Shown: positions 1,613-22,970 of the stretch, piece after piece
Layout: the number at the start of each line of letters is the position of its first letter
Numbering within the stretch: position 1 is the first letter of the stretch
From: a virus
Taxonomy: Duplodnaviria > Caudoviricetes
Virus record (IMG/VR): IMGVR_UViG_2974508059_000001
Coordinates: 180,951 to 244,950 of that record
DNA: 64,000 nt
Reading direction: 5' to 3' (one strand)
Made by a program: the position numbers and the translations under genes
The notes under the pieces: generated by a model
What the model was told of the DNA's origin: nothing
Seen by the model: only the letters and a program-made list of their open reading frames with translations
The model's database searches: none

Positions 1613-3133
1613 ATGAAAGAGTACGACGTCGCCGTGCTATACACGGACGGGAGTCACACCACTGCCCCCTTAGGTTCGGGGGCGGGTATTCATGGCTACC
1701 TGTACAATAAAGCTGATTTTAAATCAGAACGTGGCTATTTCGCCGACGGGGTACCGGAGGCGGTTACGCCAGAAGAGTACCAAATCATTTCGCAGGCGGA
1801 GAAATTGCCTGCTATGCCTGAGGGCTTAGTCGAATGGGTTAACTGCACGATTCCTGTACCCAAAGAACAATTCTCGGATGTCGGTGAACTGGTGGCCTTT
1901 ATCTCGGCCTTTGATGGTGCACCGTTTAAGGCAAAGAAATACGTTATCCACGTGGATGCGACCTACGTACTGAACTCCTTCAATAAGTGGCTGGAAGGTT
2001 GGGCCAGTCGGGGTTGGTTACGGGCTGACGGGACACCGGTTGCGAACCTCAAACTGATGCAGCGTATCTGGGAGCTCAAACAGGGCTTCAAGAAAGACGG
2101 CATCTCAGTTAAGGTCGTGAAGATTAAAGGGCACTCTGACCGCTACGGCAACGACCAAGCGGATAAGATGGCCCGTCTTGGTTCGACTATGACGGCGACG
2201 TTTGAGAATGTGGAGTATCGCCCATTCTGGACAACCGAAGAGATGCCTGCGAAGGAAGAGAAAGAGCAGGCAGTCGATGTTGGTATCAATCTCTCTTTAC
2301 TGCCGGCTATCAACACGCAGAAGTTCCACTACGTGCAGGTGAATGAACCCCACCCGATGTGCACCGTGAACGGCGAGCAGTGGTATTATCTGTCCTCAGG
2401 CAACCATGCCAAAGACAAAGACGATATCGTGCTGCTTGGGAAGATGATTCCCGATGCGATGTTCTCGGTGACCTTTGCTAAGAAACCGTGGGAGAACCTT
2501 TACTTCCTCGCCAACGCCCATGCCAACACCGCGTGGCAGGACACCCCGGCACTGAAGCGGTTTGACCCGATTGCGATCATCACCGGTGATTTCCTGAAGC
2601 GTAAGAAGTTTCAGGAGGCGTGCAAGGAGGGAATACCGATTGAGCGCATGACCTTCTCAGAAGACCGCAACGTGTGGTTCTTTGAGGACTTGGCCATCAG
2701 TCGTATTCTGCGCCCTGCGCTGCTGTCGTATCGGGCGATTGGTTTTCGTGACGAACTGGCTCAGATGCTGAAGTCGGTCATGCAAAAGGAAGCGCATATC
2801 GTTTTAAACGACATCACCGATCTTCTCTTTGATGAGAAGGGGAAACCTTCCAAAGAGGTCTACCGTAACGTTGATAAGTCGTTTGAGATTCAGGCGAAGA
2901 TTCCCTTCAACGACACGCAAACCATTCCCATCATCCTGACGCGAGGTATTGACCTACCGCAACGTACCGACATTAACCGCATCAAAGAACCCACTGGTCG
3001 CTTCTACGTGGCTTGCTGGCGTCCTGAGGAGCGTTACGTGCGTTATGCAGTGATTTATCTCGGGGAAGAGTATAACGGGTTATGGATAGCCTACTACGCT
3101 GCAAACCGCATCCTGCCGACTGACATTAAGTGA
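1613..3133 (+). CDS. rnh: Ribonuclease HI with long C-terminal extension (phiKZ gp155-like)
   Basis: LYTDGS, GELVAF, HVDATYV, W...GW...DG.PVAN, KIKGHS..YGNDQADKMA motifs. SD GAGG precedes ATG 1613. Confidence 0.9.
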   Translation: MKEYDVAVLYTDGSHTTAPLGSGAGIHGYLYNKADFKSERGYFADGVPEAVTPEEYQIISQAEKLPAMPEGLVEWVNCTIPVPKEQFSDVGELVAFISAFDGAPFKAKKYVIHVDATYVLNSFNKWLEGWASRGWLRADGTPVANLKLMQRIWELKQGFKKDGISVKVVKIKGHSDRYGNDQADKMARLGSTMTATFENVEYRPFWTTEEMPAKEEKEQAVDVGINLSLLPAINTQKFHYVQVNEPHPMCTVNGEQWYYLSSGNHAKDKDDIVLLGKMIPDAMFSVTFAKKPWENLYFLANAHANTAWQDTPALKRFDPIAIITGDFLKRKKFQEACKEGIPIERMTFSEDRNVWFFEDLAISRILRPALLSYRAIGFRDELAQMLKSVMQKEAHIVLNDITDLLFDEKGKPSKEVYRNVDKSFEIQAKIPFNDTQTIPIILTRGIDLPQRTDINRIKEPTGRFYVACWRPEERYVRYAVIYLGEEYNGLWIAYYAANRILPTDIK

Positions 3134-3918: not shown

Positions 3919-4638
3919 ATGTTACGTGTGGTTATGCCCGAACTCTTTCAGTTTACAACGCCTACCGCGACGAAGCTGTTTGAGAAGATATGGGATCGCT
4001 ACTGCCCGGAGAAGCTTGCTACTCGACCTGAACTGTGGGTACGCCGAGATGAGTTCTATCTGGGCGCTTTCCCACTGTTCGTTAAAACGTTTGCAGTGGC
4101 CATTACCGGGATGTTGGATGCGGTCAACCTTGGTCGTGATTTTGACATTCACGAGTTGGAATTTAGCTACGAGGATATTTATAACGATTATCAGCATGAG
4201 GAATTCGACGGTGAGATGGAAGGGGAAGTGTTACTCTTCATGAACTTCGTCGAAGGTGTGTTGGGTGAGAAGGACAAGTTCTTAAACGAGCTGGCGGATA
4301 AACTGACAGGGGCGTATCAGAACCTGTTGGCACTGCGCAAGCAACACGACATCGTTGGCTTTTGGCTGGATGTCTATTCGATGGACATGCGCATCTGGGA
4401 AGACAACCCGTCGGTGTTCGCTATTCAGAACGGGGACTTTGAACCGCAGTGGCATGACCGTTACACCACCGGCCCCGGCAGTATGTTCTACGAGCTTTCA
4501 AAAGACGACGGTATGGAGTTCTACCTGTGGATGGATTGCATCGTGGCCGAGTCGCCACGCATCACGATTCCCGAAGGCGAACCGGTAACGTTGTGTCATT
4601 TAACCCATGAAGCCATTGCCTTTATGGAACCCGTCTAA
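3919..4638 (+). CDS. Hypothetical acidic protein
   Basis: 239-aa ORF with AGGAG SD, downstream of the promoter motif. Confidence 0.8.
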   Translation: MLRVVMPELFQFTTPTATKLFEKIWDRYCPEKLATRPELWVRRDEFYLGAFPLFVKTFAVAITGMLDAVNLGRDFDIHELEFSYEDIYNDYQHEEFDGEMEGEVLLFMNFVEGVLGEKDKFLNELADKLTGAYQNLLALRKQHDIVGFWLDVYSMDMRIWEDNPSVFAIQNGDFEPQWHDRYTTGPGSMFYELSKDDGMEFYLWMDCIVAESPRITIPEGEPVTLCHLTHEAIAFMEPV

Positions 4639-5500: not shown

Positions 5501-6119
5501 GATGCACATCCTCATGTCGTTGGAATCTTATCTCAAAGGTCTGTCGTTTCATGAGGAGGCCGTGAAAACTGCCTACCTTATTGTTGCAAGAGAAATCGCA
5601 AAGCAGGATTACATCGAAGATTGGGCACCCCTTTCCGGAATGTGGCAGGCGATGCGCTTTATTGTTCACGAGGGCGGCCTTGAACTCGCCTTGGCCGAAG
5701 AGTACGTCGAGCCGCGGATGGTGAAAAAAGTACGTCAGCTTCTCTTAGCTTTGATGGGGGACTTTGATAACTTTCCGCGACACTCCATGGATGTGAACCG
5801 CAGTTACCTCGGTAGCGTCAGTGAAGTGAAAGCCGCACTCGACATGCCGCTTGTGTTTGCGCGGGATGAAGACCTGCTGAATCACAACCTGTGGTTTGCC
5901 GGTTCCATGGAGAGTCCATGCTACGTGGAAGAGCGGGAGATTATCAGCTCAGAACAAGAGTGGGGTAATCTGGTTGTCAAATACCCACACGGTCCGTATA
6001 TGTGGCGAGCCGATTGGGATGCGTTTGTACCGCGTGCTGACTCGATGCGTCACAAGCACGTTATGATTCTTGATGTTGAAGCAGAGCGTGAGCGTTTCTA
6101 CGCGCTCTTTAAGGAGTAA
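5487..6119 (+). CDS. Hypothetical protein
   Basis: GGAG SD 7 nt before ATG 5487; overlaps the upstream stop. Confidence 0.7.
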   Translation: MQQVKMHILMSLESYLKGLSFHEEAVKTAYLIVAREIAKQDYIEDWAPLSGMWQAMRFIVHEGGLELALAEEYVEPRMVKKVRQLLLALMGDFDNFPRHSMDVNRSYLGSVSEVKAALDMPLVFARDEDLLNHNLWFAGSMESPCYVEEREIISSEQEWGNLVVKYPHGPYMWRADWDAFVPRADSMRHKHVMILDVEAERERFYALFKE

Positions 6120-6121
6120 CC

Positions 6122-6724
6122 ATGCAAGTCATTTTAAACATGGCTCTCGGTGAACAGGCTAACCAAATCAGCGAACTGATGGTCGACCTGCGTAAAGACC
6201 TGAACTTTGAGCTGCACGACATTATCAGTAAATACGAACGCAGTCTGCGCGAGGACACCGACAAAGTGCACCACGTTGTTGATGCTCCGAAGATTGTCGA
6301 TGAGTTAACCGCGCTGATTGTTGACCAAGCCAAGGACGTGTTGCAAAAGACGTTCACCATTGGCATCAACGGTTGGGACACCGTGGATGAGCTGGCCCTG
6401 CGGGTAGAAGAAGCGTTCACGAAGGGGGTAACGGACTTAGAAAGTTACGTGCACCTGAATGCCCACGAAACCTTTGTGGCCTGTGGCAACTCCGGTGAAC
6501 GCACACTGACGTTCCAAATGGAATCGCTCCACGATCTCTTTGGGGCAACCGACACCATGAAGGTGGAAGGCATTGTGATGAAAGCCAAAGAGAAGGTTGG
6601 CATCCTTGCCCGTCAGGAAATGGAAACCCTTCTGAGCAAGCTCCAACTGTACAAACTGACGCCAGAGCAAGTGGATGGTGTTCATGAGATGGGCCGTGGT
6701 GAAATGACCGTTAGTCGTTTCTAA
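6122..6724 (+). CDS. Hypothetical protein (N-terminal motif family member 1)
   Basis: TAAGGAG SD; starts MQVILNM. Confidence 0.8.
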   Translation: MQVILNMALGEQANQISELMVDLRKDLNFELHDIISKYERSLREDTDKVHHVVDAPKIVDELTALIVDQAKDVLQKTFTIGINGWDTVDELALRVEEAFTKGVTDLESYVHLNAHETFVACGNSGERTLTFQMESLHDLFGATDTMKVEGIVMKAKEKVGILARQEMETLLSKLQLYKLTPEQVDGVHEMGRGEMTVSRF

Positions 6725-8407: not shown

Positions 8408-8902
8408 ATGCGCATTTACGTAGACATGAACACCACCAACATCTACGACGCCTTCTCCATCGGTTTCGAAGGTATGCTGGAACGCACACTGGAGTACCAC
8501 CGGATGTTGGTCTCGGGGCATGAGAATGAACGCGTCAGAGAAAACGCTGACTACTTCAAATCGAAAGCCTACGAGGGTCACCTCTCTGCACTGCTGTTAA
8601 AAGGGTTTGGGCATTTCCATACCCTCATCAATTCACAGTTGGTGTGTTTCAACACCGAACTCACACGGGTGTCGCAAGATGACCCGGTGACGCGGTTGAT
8701 GAATACCTGTACCGCAGATGTGGTGGGTGAACTGGTGAATTTCCCCGATGGGACGAAGCTTGAGTACGCGCTCTTTGACGAGGCGGTGATGGATGACCTG
8801 TACGTGGAACTGGAAGCGTTTCGCGAAGAGCTCATCCGTATCGTTAATGCCGAAGTCAACGACGCGCTCAAAGCCGCTATCCTCATTGTGAAAAATAAAT
8901 AA
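8408..8902 (+). CDS. Hypothetical protein (N-terminal motif family member 5)
   Basis: AAGG SD; starts MRIYVDMNT. Confidence 0.8.
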   Translation: MRIYVDMNTTNIYDAFSIGFEGMLERTLEYHRMLVSGHENERVRENADYFKSKAYEGHLSALLLKGFGHFHTLINSQLVCFNTELTRVSQDDPVTRLMNTCTADVVGELVNFPDGTKLEYALFDEAVMDDLYVELEAFREELIRIVNAEVNDALKAAILIVKNK

Positions 8903-8946
8903 AAGTCACCCTACTCCGAGTGGAGTAGGGTACTTCTTCTTATCTT
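8898..8946. terminator. Bidirectional terminator between convergent genes
   Basis: ACCCTACTCC-GAGT-GGAGTAGGGT perfect stem with A-rich left and T-rich right flanks. Confidence 0.8.
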
Positions 8947-9702
8947 TTATTTTTTGCCTTCACGCAACAGTTTCAAACGATCGGCGGTGGCGTTCAACGC
9001 TTCCAGCAGTTCGTTGGTTTGTTTCATGAAGAGACCGAACAGCTCAACCCAGTTAGAGGCCATGTCGAGTGCCAGTGTGAGTTGCTCAACCACCTGCGGA
9101 TGCACCTCTTGGTCAGCCAGTGCGTCTGCAGAAGCCCCGATAGAGTCAACCAGGCGGGTAACGTCTTTGCGAAGCTTCTTGCTGATGTCCGCACGCAGGG
9201 CACGGGCACGGTTGAAGGTGGCGTCGATTTCACTGGCGCTGTGATACGTCTTTTCAATCGGACGCTGGTCAACGACCGCGTTGCTGTAGGACTGGGCGAG
9301 CTTTGCCACCAAGTCCTGTGGCTCGATGTTCTTCAGCGGGTATTTGAAGTCCTTGAAGCGAAAGCCCACAGGCAGGGTCAGCATCCCTTTCTGGTGCGTC
9401 ATGCCGGCCAGCAACTTATCAATCGGTTGCAGCACACCCGGCAGGATATCTTGCAGCACATCCCACACAGACTCCAGACGCTGAAGGTGGTCCATCACGT
9501 AGGTGTTGAAACCCGGTGGCACCGGTACCAGCATACCTTGGAAGTTCAGGAACTTCTCTTTCTGCATCCAGTTCGCCATGTTCGACATGTCGTCGTACGT
9601 GGTCAGGGCCAGCTCTTGGTCGTTGTTGGTAAAACCTTTGGGTAAAATAACCGACGCTTTGGAAGCAAATGCTTGGAGCGCGGCGATGGGATTCAGTGTC
9701 AT
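8947..9702 (-). CDS. Putative virion structural protein (syntenic with phiKZ gp153)
   Basis: 251-aa helical ORF on the minus strand, divergent from uvsX; the call rests on synteny. Confidence 0.55.
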   Translation of the reverse strand: MTLNPIAALQAFASKASVILPKGFTNNDQELALTTYDDMSNMANWMQKEKFLNFQGMLVPVPPGFNTYVMDHLQRLESVWDVLQDILPGVLQPIDKLLAGMTHQKGMLTLPVGFRFKDFKYPLKNIEPQDLVAKLAQSYSNAVVDQRPIEKTYHSASEIDATFNRARALRADISKKLRKDVTRLVDSIGASADALADQEVHPQVVEQLTLALDMASNWVELFGLFMKQTNELLEALNATADRLKLLREGKK

Positions 9703-11294: not shown

Positions 11295-11337
11295 CCCTAC
11301 GCGGGGTGGCGTGTACCACCCCGTATTGGAGGAAACG

Positions 11338-11634
11338 ATGCAGTATCAACGAGTCATTATTCAGCGCCTTGAACAGGGCTTGCGTGGCATTGATCCGAAT
11401 GCTGCCGATGCTCTGGTTGCGCACTTTGCCGCACCTGCGGAATCACTCGGGACATTTTGTCCTCAGGTGGTTTCCTTTTACCAGAACTTACTGCGCGAAC
11501 GTGGTATCCCGGATGTCTGGGGTTATCCGTCTGTGCCTGAAAACAACGAAGCCATCGCGTATTGGATTGAGGACTTAGAGAATACCGCTCTGCCTCACTT
11601 GCGTGTTGCCCGTCAGTTTCAAACTGCGTCATGA
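11338..11634 (+). CDS. Hypothetical protein
   Basis: GGAGG SD before ATG 11338, preceded by a hairpin at 11298-11325. Confidence 0.7.
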   Translation: MQYQRVIIQRLEQGLRGIDPNAADALVAHFAAPAESLGTFCPQVVSFYQNLLRERGIPDVWGYPSVPENNEAIAYWIEDLENTALPHLRVARQFQTAS

Positions 11635-12302
11635 AGCTCAACCCAGTACGTCGCAAGGCGGCGGAGAAATTCATACTGGAATTGCTGAACCTGATTGACA
11701 CCTCCGGCATCAATGCCAATGCCATGGCGAAAGCCTTTACGCGCATGACCGATGAAGAGTTTGCCACCATTCCGACCAAGGGTATCCCGATTTACAACCC
11801 GGCCGGTAGCAAAGTTCAAATCGACCACATGCGAAACGTAGAGATTGCCAAAGCGTTGGGCTTGGACATGAACCAGCGTATGTGGTTCACCGACTCCAAA
11901 ACCGGGCTTAAGCACCGTACTCGACACCCTCACCTTTATTTCCCCGTGCCTGCTCGTCGTCAGACGCAGATGCAGGAGAAGAAGATGGCGGTGGCGAAGA
12001 ACGACAAAGTGCGTGACAAGCTTTCCGGTCAGGTGGTCGGCCCATCTAAAGCCTCTGGGGTCTCTTTCCCCGAAGCGTACGTGATGTTTGCCGATGGTCT
12101 TGATGAGACCCTGCAAGAGTTCCTGCACGCGCGCGGTGGTAACGATGCACTTCAACGTGCGTTCTACCAATCTATTCGCCAAACCGGCCAAGGTCGTATC
12201 CACATTGAAGGGGCTGAGCGTACGAGTGCGAAGAGCACCCGAACGTGGAGTGCCTACTACAAACAGATGCACATTGGCAACAACCTCGGACGACCCCAAT
12301 GA
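11631..12302 (+). CDS. rpoB: Virion RNA polymerase beta subunit, C-terminal part (phiKZ gp149-like)
   Basis: RRQTQMQEKK, LSGQVVG and VSFPEAYVM....LDETLQEFL..RGG align with the C-terminal motifs of RpoB. Confidence 0.8.
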   Translation: MKLNPVRRKAAEKFILELLNLIDTSGINANAMAKAFTRMTDEEFATIPTKGIPIYNPAGSKVQIDHMRNVEIAKALGLDMNQRMWFTDSKTGLKHRTRHPHLYFPVPARRQTQMQEKKMAVAKNDKVRDKLSGQVVGPSKASGVSFPEAYVMFADGLDETLQEFLHARGGNDALQRAFYQSIRQTGQGRIHIEGAERTSAKSTRTWSAYYKQMHIGNNLGRPQ

Positions 12303-18409: not shown

Positions 18410-18811
18410 ATGAATAAGATTGAATACAAAGACGGCGAAGGTGCCTTCATTAACGGCGTATTGATTCCGAACTCCCACAACGGGCATTGGAAAGACGCAG
18501 CATTTGCTCTGGCCACCGGTTTCAACATGACCATCACCAACGAGCTGTCTCTGAACAATTCGCTGGATGCCATCACCAAGGGCGGTTGTTTTCGTATCAA
18601 CGCAGAAGCGGCGGGTGCGCTGTTACAGAATGCGGACTTCACCAGCGGCATGTACGCCTACCGTCAGTTGGGTATTCTGCGTACCCTGTCTGGTAAGCAT
18701 ATCGGGCAAGGGCATCCGCCATCCACTTTCAAGCCGAACTCCATTGTCCTGGTCAGCTACTTCAGTGACCGCGAAGAGATGTTGGGCTTCAATGTTATCT
18801 GGGGTATCTGA
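18410..18811 (+). CDS. Hypothetical protein
   Basis: 133-aa ORF coupled to the next gene (TGATG). Confidence 0.7.
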   Translation: MNKIEYKDGEGAFINGVLIPNSHNGHWKDAAFALATGFNMTITNELSLNNSLDAITKGGCFRINAEAAGALLQNADFTSGMYAYRQLGILRTLSGKHIGQGHPPSTFKPNSIVLVSYFSDREEMLGFNVIWGI

Positions 18812-19386
18812 TGACTGACTTTAATCCCGTAGCCGTTGTTCGCCAAGTCGAACAGTGGAACGACCGTGCCTTGGTTTACCAGTTCGGTAACATCCGTCAA
18901 CAAATCACCAAATACTACCGCATGTTGGGCATGGTTGCGGAAGGTGTGCAGAAGATGGACAGTCTGTTGGTCTCAGCGGGCGTAGGACAGGCTGTAACGA
19001 CGTTAATAGGTGTCCTCGGGTTCTACTCGCGTAAAACGGACATCCCCGTAGAAGCCGTTACAGAGGTCGTGCTGCACTCTGCCCTGAATAACATCCCACC
19101 GGGCATGAAATACGGCAACGACTATAACACGATTCTGTTTGAGCACAACAAGGCTATCACCCAGTTGTTCGATGCCCTGCTGGCCAACGAGCAGGAGAAG
19201 CAGCGTCAGGACATCGTGTTCTACTCCAAGCTTGCAGAAGCACTGGCGTTGTTGCTGTCGATTGCCACCGCCAAAGACATCATCGTGACCCGCAGCATTC
19301 TGAATGCGGTGAATAAACTCGAAGCGACTGAGGGCGTGATGAACGAACTCGGTCAGTTTGTCAAAACAGTGACAGGAAACAAATAA
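18811..19386 (+). CDS. Degenerate MazG-like NTP pyrophosphatase paralog (catalytic acids lost)
   Basis: Aligns end-to-end by eye with the MazG domain of 21588-22970, but EExxE...DxxxD is replaced by RMxxM...AxxxQ. Confidence 0.65.
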
Positions 19387-20408
19387 TGCGCCAGTATCTT
19401 CAATTGATGGAATCCGTCCTCTCTTTCGGTCATGAAAAGAAAGACCGTACCGGCACCGGAACGCGCTCCTTGTTCGGGGCCCAGATGCGCTTTGACCTGA
19501 CCGAAGGCTTCCCACTGGTGACCACGAAAAAGGTTCACCTGCGCTCTATCATTCACGAGCTGCTGTGGTTCCTGAAAGGTGATACCAACATCGGTTACCT
19601 GAAAGACAACAACGTTTCCATCTGGGATGAGTGGGCTGATGAGAACGGCGACCTAGGACCGGTGTACGGCAAGCAGTGGCGGGAGTGGATGGATTACCGT
19701 GTCATTGGCGAAGACAACGCAGAGCAAGCGGCGTTGTTGAAGAAAGCAGGCTACAAGTTCTTCGGTAGTGAAACGGGTGTTGCGTTAGAAGAGCCTGATA
19801 TCTGGGTCCGTAAAACTGACCAAATCTCCAAGGTCATCGACCAACTGCGCAACGATCCGGACAATCGCCGCATTATTGTCAGTGCGTGGAACGTAGGTGA
19901 GTTGGACCAGATGGCGTTGGCCCCGTGTCATTCTTTCTTCCAGTTCTATACGCGCGAGCTGACGCTGTACGAGCGTGCTCTTGCTGCAAAAGAGAAAGGC
20001 ACCGAAGACTACTACCTGAATCTCAATGAGAAACATCAGGAGCAGCTGCATTACGAGTTCGATGAATTGGCTGTTCCCCGTCGCGGTCTATCGTGTCAGT
20101 TGTATCAGCGCAGCGCCGATGTCTTCTTGGGCGTACCGTTTAACATCGCCTCGTATGCTTTACTGACTGAGATGATTGCTCAGCAGGTCAACATGGTGGC
20201 CGAAGAGTTCGTCTGGACAGGCGGTGATACGCATCTGTATTCCAACCATCTGGAGCAGGCACGTCTGCAGTTAACACGTGACCCGCATCCGTTACCGCGT
20301 CTGAAAATCAAACGCAAGCCCGACTCTATCTTTGACTACCAGTTCGAAGACTTTGAAGTCGAAGGTTACGTTTCACACGACGCTATCAAAGCGCCAGTTG
20401 CTATCTAG
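19386..20408 (+). CDS. thyA: Thymidylate synthase
   Basis: [53 protein letters not shown] and HLYSNH motifs. Confidence 0.98.
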
Positions 20409-20416
20409 GAGGTCAC

Positions 20417-20812
20417 ATGACTATTTGTGCTTACTTCTATTCTTACCCAAAAACCTCGGTCAGTAGTATTGTGCGCAATGCTTGGGATCACAACAAGCCG
20501 ATTAGCCACATCGACCATGTCTACGGTGAGGTCGAAAATGACCAAGACAAAATGGAGTGGTCGGCTCGAACCTCATTCTGTTACGAGGCGCTGAAACTCA
20601 TTACGCCGAAAGACAAAGAAGGTTGTTATCACGGTGACGAGGAATTCTCTATCAGTCGTGAGACACTCATTGCGTTTAAAGCGAATGTCGAACAGCTCGA
20701 TCAAAAAGACGCGATGGGTGAAGATTGGGTGAAGGTAACACTCTACGAACTCCAGCAACTCATCGATACTTTCAACTTCGATGAGAAGTATCTTACCGTC
20801 CAGACCGATTAA
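20417..20812 (+). CDS. Hypothetical protein
   Basis: GGAGG SD. Confidence 0.75.
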   Translation: MTICAYFYSYPKTSVSSIVRNAWDHNKPISHIDHVYGEVENDQDKMEWSARTSFCYEALKLITPKDKEGCYHGDEEFSISRETLIAFKANVEQLDQKDAMGEDWVKVTLYELQQLIDTFNFDEKYLTVQTD

Positions 20813-20868
20813 AAACGTGATTCCGCAGTTCTATGCTGAAACACACAACTGAAAAGAAGGAAAGCGAG

Positions 20869-21060
20869 ATGTCCCAGAAAGAAAGCTCCATGCAGTCTAC
20901 CATCAACCAGCACAACCAGATGGTTGCGGATGACGCCGACGACAGTTTCGACCTGCCGGGTCTGGACGACGCCGAAGCGCGTGTGGCTGAGAAGCGCGAT
21001 GCCGAAGAAAATCAGGAAGACATTTCTGATGAAGCGGATTGCGAAGGCTGCAAAATCTAA
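20869..21060 (+). CDS. Small acidic protein ending in an NrdA-tail-like CxxCKI
   Basis: AAGG SD; C-terminus EDISDEADCEGCKI; own upstream TATG and downstream terminator. Confidence 0.65.
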   Translation: MSQKESSMQSTINQHNQMVADDADDSFDLPGLDDAEARVAEKRDAEENQEDISDEADCEGCKI

Positions 21061-21070
21061 GTAGTGCTTG

Positions 21071-21099
21071 CCCCGCCACGTGCGGGGTATTCTTTTATT
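21071..21099 (+). terminator. Rho-independent terminator
   Basis: CCCCGC-CACGT-GCGGGG followed by TATTCTTTT. Confidence 0.65.
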
Positions 21100-21587: not shown

Positions 21588-22970
21588 ATGGGCGAGCAAT
21601 TTGTTATCCAAGTGCCATACGTTGCACTGTTTAATCCGAACAACTTCCTGATGGAAGTCAACGATGCGCTGAAGGTACTGAAAGAGGAAGGGCGTGCGAA
21701 CATCCTGTTCCGCACTATCCGTTCACTCGACCGCAATGTCGAAACCGGCACATGGTACATCGAAGGTGACTTGGCACCGGAAGAGGGCGACGTCGAAGAA
21801 GATCCGGAGATGCAGTTTAACCGCATGCGTGACCTCGATAATTACGACTGCGAACTGAACCTGCCGCTGCTGCACGTTCTGCTGGCCGCACCGTTGTACG
21901 ATGCACAGAAAAACATCGTGACCCATCCGCGTTATATCCGCCTGTTCCAAATTCCTGAGCTGATTCAGAAAATCAAAGGCTGGTCACAAGCGCGCGGCAT
22001 TCTGGACAACGGCATCTGGTACACCCAAGCCACCAAGATGTACGAAGAAGACGGTGAGATTGCCCCGGGTGTGGCCAAGTCCAAACGTAACATGGTTATC
22101 GACGGCGTCGGTGACATGATCGTGGTAATGGTTAACCTGCTGGAGCTGACGAACTTTAATTCCGAGGCCATTACGGCGATGGTTGCTTCTGTCCGTAAAG
22201 AAGCACCGCCTATGGGTAATGCACACTACCTGTACCACAAGCTGCGTATGTCGAACACGCTGTCCGTCGACTACATGTGGGAAGTCGCTGGCGTGGATTC
22301 GCCGAAGCAGTTGACCCGTACGATGTTTGATGAAACACAAATCAAATACGCTATCGGTCATCTGGGCGACTGTTTGATCTTTGCCAATGCGCTGGCTAAT
22401 GCGTACGAGTTCACGCTGGAGCAAGCCCTGTCCATGGCGTGGGATGAAATCAAAGACCGCACCGGTTTTCTGAACGCAGACGGTGTGTTTGTGAAGGAGT
22501 CTGATATGTCTGAAAACGATCGTATCCAACGTGCCCTGAAAGACACCGAAAAAGCCGGTAACTTTGACGGTGATAATAGCCCTGCGCGCAAACTGGAAGT
22601 TGACCTTTCAGGCGAACACGCAACCACGACCGCCCGTGGAATGACCTCAGCCTTCACGGCGGTTGATGAACTGGGAACTGTCGAGCCACCAACCAAAGAG
22701 ATCTCTTACTTCCCGGTTGTGCCGACTACTGAACAACTGAGCGCAGCGACCGATGCTATTCATGCAACACTCGGCGGTGACTCAGTACAGTTTGTCCGTG
22801 TAGGCACCTACTACGGTGGTGACACGTTCTACCCTCGTCCGCACATCCTGTTTGAATTCACACTCGACGGTCGTCCGGGAACGCGCCATCAGCAGGTTGA
22901 AGAAGGCGAGTATTGGGAATTTGCTGACGATGCGGCGTCTTACATCGTGCGTGAGCCTATCAGCGACTAA
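21588..22970 (+). CDS. Multidomain protein with central MazG-like nucleotide pyrophosphohydrolase domain
   Basis: W...RGI...G....Q.TK.YEE.GE......K......DGVGD and AWDEIKDRTG....GVFVKE. Confidence 0.8.
   Translation: MGEQFVIQVPYVALFNPNNFLMEVNDALKVLKEEGRANILFRTIRSLDRNVETGTWYIEGDLAPEEGDVEEDPEMQFNRMRDLDNYDCELNLPLLHVLLAAPLYDAQKNIVTHPRYIRLFQIPELIQKIKGWSQARGILDNGIWYTQATKMYEEDGEIAPGVAKSKRNMVIDGVGDMIVVMVNLLELTNFNSEAITAMVASVRKEAPPMGNAHYLYHKLRMSNTLSVDYMWEVAGVDSPKQLTRTMFDETQIKYAIGHLGDCLIFANALANAYEFTLEQALSMAWDEIKDRTGFLNADGVFVKESDMSENDRIQRALKDTEKAGNFDGDNSPARKLEVDLSGEHATTTARGMTSAFTAVDELGTVEPPTKEISYFPVVPTTEQLSAATDAIHATLGGDSVQFVRVGTYYGGDTFYPRPHILFEFTLDGRPGTRHQQVEEGEYWEFADDAASYIVREPISD

Follow-up and report, generated by a model that had tools for sequence, protein, structure and literature searches.

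A free-standing acidic microprotein of a jumbo phage and of Enterobacterales chromosomes ends like the redox tail of ribonucleotide reductase

Here we show that a jumbo phage with no ribonucleotide reductase (RNR) of its own encodes a real 63-residue acidic protein, under purifying selection, whose last residues copy the cysteine-bearing C-terminal arm that recharges that enzyme. The protein belongs to an uncharacterised microprotein family (phrog_10239) that is also found in the chromosomes of Erwinia, Pantoea, Serratia and relatives, so it may be an unrecognised, free-floating part of the DNA-precursor machinery. The first-pass annotation of the sequence had described the open reading frame as a very acidic, probably disordered mini-protein with its own Shine-Dalgarno site, an upstream TATG (20832) and a terminator, lying in a thyA/MazG nucleotide cluster without nrdA; that observation is confirmed, with the refinement that the predicted disorder holds for the tail and not for the whole protein. 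Its interpretation, a phage-encoded tail acting in trans on host RNR or as a decoy for RNR, thioredoxin (Trx) or glutaredoxin (Grx), is only partly supported.

The gene and its genomic setting

The window analysed here is the last 64 kb of a 244,950-bp IMG/VR phage record rated 99% complete, whose nearest named relative is Erwinia phage pEa_SNUABM_11 (Wellingtonvirus; homolog 82.5% identical). The open reading frame spans 20869-21060 on the + strand, stop codon included, and ends SDEADCEGCKI; it carries 19 D+E against 5 K+R, a pI of 4.05 and exactly two cysteines. A Shine-Dalgarno-like AAGGA (20857-20861) lies 7 nt before the ATG, and a terminator-like hairpin of 8 pairs, 6 of them G-C (21069-21089), is followed by a T run, the whole element covering 21069-21099. 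No sigma-70-like promoter was found just upstream, so the gene may be read together with thyA and an intervening 131-aa ORF. An in-frame ATG at 20833 would give 75 aa by adding 12 residues, but close homologs conserve only the MSQKE start, placing the start at 20869. Pairwise dN/dS among the window gene and three relatives at 70-86% identity is 0.10-0.32 (dS of 0.55-1.33), and dozens of homologs keep the terminus.

An AlphaFold2 model built on a 43-sequence alignment predicts helices at residues 3-23 and 32-47 and a coil tail at 48-63 with pLDDT 53-57. The first 23 residues (20869-20937) form a lineage-specific N-terminal extension, predicted to be helical, that is absent from the 43-aa host proteins and from most phage homologs; consistently, the family profile match starts at residue 24 of a 63-aa relative. 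Residues 24-47 (20938-21009) make up the conserved family core, an acidic-hydrophobic F-D-L-x-G-L-D motif plus the A-E-A-R..A-E-K-R helix. Residues 48-63 (21010-21057) comprise the acidic linker, predicted to be flexible, and the terminal motif D57-C58-E59-G60-C61-K62-I63, encoded at 21037-21057, of which D57, C58, G60, C61, K62 and I63 are invariant in both of our family alignments.

Thymidylate synthase (thyA, 19386-20408, +; PF00303, E 7e-115) and a MazG-like nucleotide pyrophosphohydrolase (21588-22970, +; phrog_7855, E 9e-118) flank the locus. The 131-aa ORF directly upstream (20417-20812, +) is of unknown function, with no Pfam, PHROG or PADLOC hit and no NrdA similarity by tblastn. The whole phage genome holds no RNR large subunit, NrdB, NrdD, Grx or Trx. 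Furthermore, tblastn with 13 NrdA proteins finds nothing in the window except 7-20 residues at the end of the ORF itself, excluding a decayed nrdA.

A microprotein family shared by phages and their hosts

The window protein matches the 47-position profile phrog_10239 (PHROGs v4, "unknown function") at E 3e-5, with relatives at 9e-8 to 2e-10; the phage relatives and the host 43-aa protein match it too, although neither the link to NrdA tails, the chromosomal orthologs nor the fusions described below are recorded there. By tblastn, the family is present in 67 GenBank phage records: 49 Erwinia, 8 Serratia, 5 Pantoea, 2 Dickeya, 1 Pectobacterium and 2 Xanthomonas DIBBI. Six diverged members share only an F-D-x-D / G-L-D-E-A-E-A-R core and an invariant end, D-C-[ED]-G-C-K-I-stop. 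A profile search of 1.84 billion representatives found 48 members of 31-223 aa, in which every intact member ends C-x2-C-K-[I/L/V] and the longer ones carry unrelated N-terminal domains with no known family; the Cys pair is likewise invariant in 39 retrieved representatives. Both cysteines, the lysine and the terminal hydrophobic residue are kept in every intact homolog found by searches that did not rely on the motif, and the only tail-less hits are frameshifted singletons; loss of the cysteines had been named beforehand as an outcome that would count against the tail reading. Across the family the only invariant feature is the acidic C-terminus, predicted to be unstructured, D-C-x2-3-C-K-[I/L/V]-COOH.

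Pfam gave no family for the window protein (no hit at E <= 1) or the host protein, a PDB sequence search gave no hit at E <= 10, PADLOC gave none, and the ESM Atlas returned only unnamed small-protein clusters below 0.9. A word-index protein search found only 4 close relatives among proteins of similar length and none among longer proteins, and megablast of the region against GenBank phages gave no match. Searches of the literature found no description of such a protein.

The resemblance to the NrdA redox tail proved closer than the first-pass annotation had recognised from the E. coli ending alone. A scan of IMG/VR for the pattern DC[DE]GCKI-stop gave 110 loci, of which 57 are one recurrent provirus artefact: a 135-aa S/R/C-rich ORF ending FTYLDCEGCKI, antisense to a 96-residue ORF that we read, by eye and without a family search, as KilA-N-like, and which we therefore count as chance. 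Of the other 53 loci, 13 are the C-termini of full-length class Ia NrdA, 27 are this family (most stand-alone, a few with an N-terminal extension), 9 are Gp49/Sf6-gp66-like proteins (PF13876) of N4-like Erwinia phages such as Frozen and Ea9-2 that carry the same tail, and 4 are other small carriers. One of the NrdA ends is identical over its C-terminal region (residues 1-84 of a 100-aa query) to the annotated "ribonucleoside-diphosphate reductase large subunit" of a T4-like Klebsiella phage. A Tequatrovirus NrdA ends KAEDCSSCKL, a Jiaodavirus NrdA ends DSADCAACKL and other phage NrdA proteins end EDC[ED]GCKI, whereas host NrdA proteins from Serratia, Erwinia, Pantoea, Budvicia and Hafnia end DD[GD]CESGACKI, two residues longer than the phage microprotein ending, and their NrdE proteins end GCVSC[AS]L. 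The family variants CEGCKI, CDGCKI, CESCKI and CGDACKI all stay within the class Ia NrdA signature [DE]-C-x2-4-C-K-[ILV]-COOH, and the ending is letter-identical to some phage NrdA ends. Most class I RNRs use a terminal CXXC, the CX4C of E. coli being the minority form (PMC9669993). However, the family profile aligns to NrdA only over the last 11-29 residues, of which only about 11 are convincing; homology of the whole microprotein to the NrdA C-terminal extension is not supported, and what is shared is the tail.

The same pattern scan of one genome per prokaryotic species gave at least 120 loci; of 120 of these, 110 are a chromosomal 43-aa protein, M[SNK]DD[IM]F[DE]FDIDA[EQ]L..AE..A..K...P....DE[AED]DCEGCKI, and 2 are NrdA. 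This protein occurs in Erwinia, Pantoea, Serratia, Rahnella, Hafnia, Budvicia, Sodalis, Tatumella, Mixta, Ewingella and others, aligns end to end with the phage proteins, and is single-copy in about 60 of 301 sampled genomes of the GTDB family that contains Serratia. A second chromosomal subfamily of 46 aa, ending DDDCGDACKI, occurs in Cedecea, Pluralibacter, Jejubacter, Enterobacter and some Klebsiella, and one Erwinia-like symbiont has ECESCKI. No ortholog was found in E. coli by blastn, which is weak evidence for a 132-nt query. These hosts have intact NrdA tails and grxA, so the phage gene is the viral copy of a host microprotein, neither a phage-specific invention nor a substitute for a missing host tail. 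No conserved neighbourhood was found across host families, the neighbours being DUF808 in Erwiniaceae, YlaC/CvrA in Serratia and ApbE/DUF305 in Sodalis. Membership of the NrdR regulon is not supported: NrdR-box-like sites (at least 12 of 16 positions) occur in 3 of 109 host upstream regions, all Ewingella-type, a rate similar to background, while the nrdA control regions scored 12-14.

The RNR large-subunit domain PF02867 is absent from the window's genome, from 5 GenBank carriers and from 25 IMG/VR carriers of the free or N-terminally extended protein (31 in total), as well as from all 9 Gp49-fusion carriers; most of these genomes are 98-100% complete. Conversely, in 11 viral contigs that encode NrdA with this tail (3 of them complete), the only family match is NrdA's own end. 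As the carriers fall into only about ten lineages and many small phages lack RNR anyway, this pattern is suggestive rather than decisive. Four of 36 carriers encode a glutaredoxin, and all four are of the AH04 type. Among five diverged AH04-type jumbo phages, none of which has an RNR, the grx gene ends a few bases before the microprotein gene in AH04 and in three we label L010, L061 and L064, and lies 450 nt downstream of it in a fifth, L013; the Grx proteins are only 51-71% identical, so the linkage has survived divergence and one rearrangement. A glutaredoxin annotated as GrxA-family, in a phage with no RNR and next to an RNR-tail look-alike, is the best contextual hint of dithiol-disulfide chemistry. 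The nucleotide-metabolism neighbourhood claimed in the first-pass annotation holds for some carriers only: the gene lies near thyA and MazG here and near CMP deaminase and thyA in phage Y3, but in the 50-kb phages it sits near packaging or lysis genes.

A possible trans-acting redox tail and competing readings

Our preferred reading, which we hold tentatively and at less than even confidence, is that the gene encodes a free-standing version of the C-terminal redox tail of class Ia RNR alpha, a short helical, acidic body carrying a flexible acidic arm. In E. coli NrdA, which ends DDGCESGACKI, the corresponding pair is C754/C759. In this view, host glutaredoxin 1 or thioredoxin, or the neighbouring phage glutaredoxin in AH04-type phages, would keep the Cys58/Cys61 pair reduced, and the arm would enter the same thiol relay as NrdA's own tail, delivering electrons in trans to the active-site disulfide (C225-C462) of the host enzyme. 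A phage that has thyA and MazG but no RNR, Grx or Trx would use it to raise or secure turnover of the host RNR on which its dNTP supply depends, and the hosts' 43-46-aa orthologs would do the same job, or tune it, in uninfected cells. The analysis establishes that the gene is real and under selection, that its terminus is invariant and identical to genuine NrdA termini, and that the carriers examined lack RNR; that Grx/Trx and NrdA are the partners, that binding and electron transfer take place at all, and that the effect is supportive rather than inhibitory are inferences from sequence, predicted structure and gene content. We favour support of turnover because the carriers depend wholly on host RNR for de novo dNTPs while investing in thyA, dCMP deaminase and MazG, because a phage Grx partner suggests a working couple, and because a second dithiol acting beside the tail raises RNR activity, the oxidised tail having to leave the active site to be re-reduced (PMC4078304). 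The predicted unstructured tail behind a helix also agrees with the description of class I tails (PMC9669993). Against this reading, a spare tail is not obviously needed in hosts with intact NrdA tails and grxA, no conserved RNR or redox neighbour exists in host chromosomes, and, with only about 11 residues of supported similarity, convergence on a generic Grx/Trx-substrate motif or on another partner cannot be excluded.

Among the alternatives, a function unrelated to RNR is unlikely but the strongest rival: the acidic CxxC-K-I end would be a thiol or metal (Zn, Fe, Cu) site or a docking tag for another host factor, its likeness to NrdA being convergence, and phages would copy the host microprotein or graft its tail onto other domains to mimic or hijack that factor. 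Indeed, phage homologs occur only in phages of hosts that own the microprotein (Erwinia, Pantoea, Serratia, Dickeya, Pectobacterium), although NrdA tails are universal in Enterobacterales, so the phage proteins may track the microprotein's partner rather than NrdA; furthermore, the tail is grafted like an address tag onto unrelated phage domains, namely Gp49-like PF13876 and several unknown ones. However, the exact heptapeptide occurs, in two large collections, essentially only on NrdA and on this family, the family's variants mirror those of NrdA in their CKI or CKL end, 2-4 residue spacing and acidic run-up, the glutaredoxin adjacency points to dithiol-disulfide chemistry, and two cysteines alone make a poor metal site. 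Slightly less likely still is an antagonist, in which the free tail competes with NrdA's own for the active site or docking surface, or soaks up or traps Grx/Trx, and so throttles class Ia RNR; the host copy would then be a brake on dNTP synthesis, and the phage copy would reprogramme or silence host RNR. The motif evidence serves this reading equally well, an extra copy in a host that already has a cis tail is more easily seen as a competitor, and the small, acidic, partly disordered (as predicted) protein recalls yeast RNR inhibitors. Yet blocking the host enzyme would cut the carriers' only de novo dNTP source, pairing with a phage glutaredoxin fits a working redox couple better than a decoy, and a binding-only decoy would not need both cysteines to be invariant.

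We consider a RiPP-like precursor or secreted peptide, with an acidic F-D-x-D leader and a modified, exported Cys-containing core, very unlikely. The FDFDID / FDLD motif is leader-like, the Cys-rich end resembles RiPP precursors, and in Serratia a MacAB-TolC-type exporter lies about 1.5 kb away; however, no maturase and no conserved neighbour of any kind was found across host genera or in the phage contexts examined, the exporter is divergent and specific to Serratia, and the motif also sits at the extreme C-terminus of cytoplasmic NrdA. A decayed 3' nrdA remnant or chance ORF, suggested only by the last residues, is refuted by the lack of NrdA similarity elsewhere in the window or genome, the gene's own Shine-Dalgarno site and terminator, the dN/dS values, and the conserved stand-alone gene of fixed length in Serratia-family genomes, those checked also having intact nrdA.

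Compared with the class Ia RNR alpha tail, the protein shares two cysteines 2-4 residues apart at the extreme C-terminus, the last at position -3 and followed by K and a hydrophobic residue, on an acidic segment predicted to be flexible. It differs in not being attached to the PF02867 catalytic barrel, in being encoded in phage genomes without any RNR or, in hosts, at a locus away from an intact, tail-bearing nrdA, and in carrying an N-terminal F-D-x-D/helix module that NrdA lacks. GrcA/YfiD of E. coli and Y06I of T4, autonomous glycyl-radical spare parts for pyruvate formate-lyase, embody the same concept, as the first-pass annotation had suggested for GrcA, and phages carry them too; but this is an analogy of principle, as the window protein has no glycyl-radical RVxG motif and no sequence or fold relationship, the chemistry differs (glycyl radical versus dithiol), and GrcA replaces a damaged part whereas the hosts' NrdA tails are intact. 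The small, intrinsically disordered yeast regulators Sml1, Spd1, Dif1 and Hug1 act on the RNR large subunit, and Sml1 interferes with the function of the R1 C-terminal CX2C tail; they are eukaryotic, not homologous, and inhibit without a conserved terminal Cys pair.

Re-reduction of the active site is an obligatory and often slow step of every RNR cycle, so far known only as a job of the enzyme's own tail. A separately encoded tail, conserved in plant- and human-associated Enterobacterales (Erwinia, Pantoea, Serratia, Hafnia, some Klebsiella) and copied by roughly ten phage lineages, would be a new handle on dNTP supply, a central battleground of phage infection; several defence systems are reported to sense phage-driven dNTP changes (bioRxiv 10.64898/2026.10.27.754916). 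It is possible, though somewhat less likely than our core reading, that Enterobacterales and their phages use a diffusible 43-63-aa tail of this kind to shuttle electrons from Grx/Trx to class Ia RNR, that phages lacking RNR deploy it, alone or with their own glutaredoxin, to take over recharging of the host enzyme, and that they graft it onto other proteins to plug them into that relay, which would constitute an undescribed layer of dNTP-supply control in well-studied bacteria. The hypothesis offers a function for a family annotated only as hypothetical and covers the unexplained tail on Gp49-like phage proteins; if the RNR link is wrong, the family is still a conserved host microprotein that phages mimic. 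Two database associations were set aside in delimiting this family: the UniRef label "Conjugal transfer protein TraD" on some 43-aa proteins, which other sources name "hypothetical protein", looks automatic and is not supported by any other source's naming, and a 715-aa cluster mate is a tape-measure protein grouped with the family by a clustering artefact.

The tail on other phage proteins and beside a phage glutaredoxin

Beyond the stand-alone microprotein, the same ...DDCEGCKI tail is carried, after an acidic linker, by Gp49/Sf6-gp66-like proteins (PF13876, a family of unknown function) of N4-like Erwinia phages, including Frozen and Ea9-2, whose genomes are about 75 kb and have no RNR. An example lies at 11321-11665 on the minus strand of the IMG/VR locus L113, with others in loci L041, L049, L059, L083, L097, L107, L108 and L121. 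The domain of these proteins has a conserved G-x-S-[AS]-C motif. The tail seems to be a portable module. In AH04-type jumbo phages, which are without any RNR, a GrxA/NrdC-like glutaredoxin (active site CVFC in AH04) is encoded directly next to the tail microprotein gene, as seen in the phage loci L003 (3709-3963 with 3968-4105), L010 (5729-5977 with 5986-6123) and L061 (2246-2485 with 2510-2647), as well as in L064 and L013.

Chromosomal relatives of the microprotein

A second chromosomal subfamily, of 46 aa (MEIDLDNLVISGLEEAEERNAER...DDDCGDACKI), occurs in Cedecea, Pluralibacter, Jejubacter, Enterobacter and some Klebsiella strains, in the last of these either as a core or as a prophage-borne gene (chromosomal loci L253-L258; for example, L254 at 2001-2138, minus strand). 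The body of this subfamily is closer to the AH04-type phage proteins than to the 43-aa type. For the 43-aa gene itself, an NrdR-box-like 16-mer (12-13 of 16 positions, for example ACACTATATGTGGTGA) sits at the same position, about 105 nt upstream, in three Ewingella-type genomes only (loci L152, L168 and L197); it is possible that this reflects chance or, alternatively, a lineage-specific link to the nrd regulon. A phage-type family member (MADEEFNLDFIGDLDAAEKR...EADCEGCKI), near-identical to that of the IMG/VR locus L012, sits in a Pantoea stewartii chromosome (locus L182, 4412-4540, minus strand) and is presumably prophage-borne; UniRef also lists a 43-aa type for P. stewartii, in that case for DC283.

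A false positive of the motif scan and MazG-related paralogs around thyA

One recurrent sequence picked up by the motif scan is a false positive, of relevance to anyone repeating the scan: an S/R/C-rich ORF of 133 aa ending FTYLDCEGCKI, found at 8791-9192 on the plus strand of the IMG/VR locus L020 and in 56 further IMG/VR provirus loci, lies antisense to a 96-residue ORF (9078-9368, minus strand) that we read, by eye, as KilA-N-like.

Within the window, the 191-aa ORF just upstream of thyA (18811-19386, plus strand) hits MazG-like PHROGs (phrog_10269 at an E-value of 3e-34 and phrog_7855 at 2.5e-6), as does the 460-aa MazG-like protein encoded downstream (21588-22970, plus strand). Two MazG-related paralogs thus flank thyA, the shorter of which has been called catalytically dead in a separate first-pass annotation, on whose reading alone that suggestion rests.
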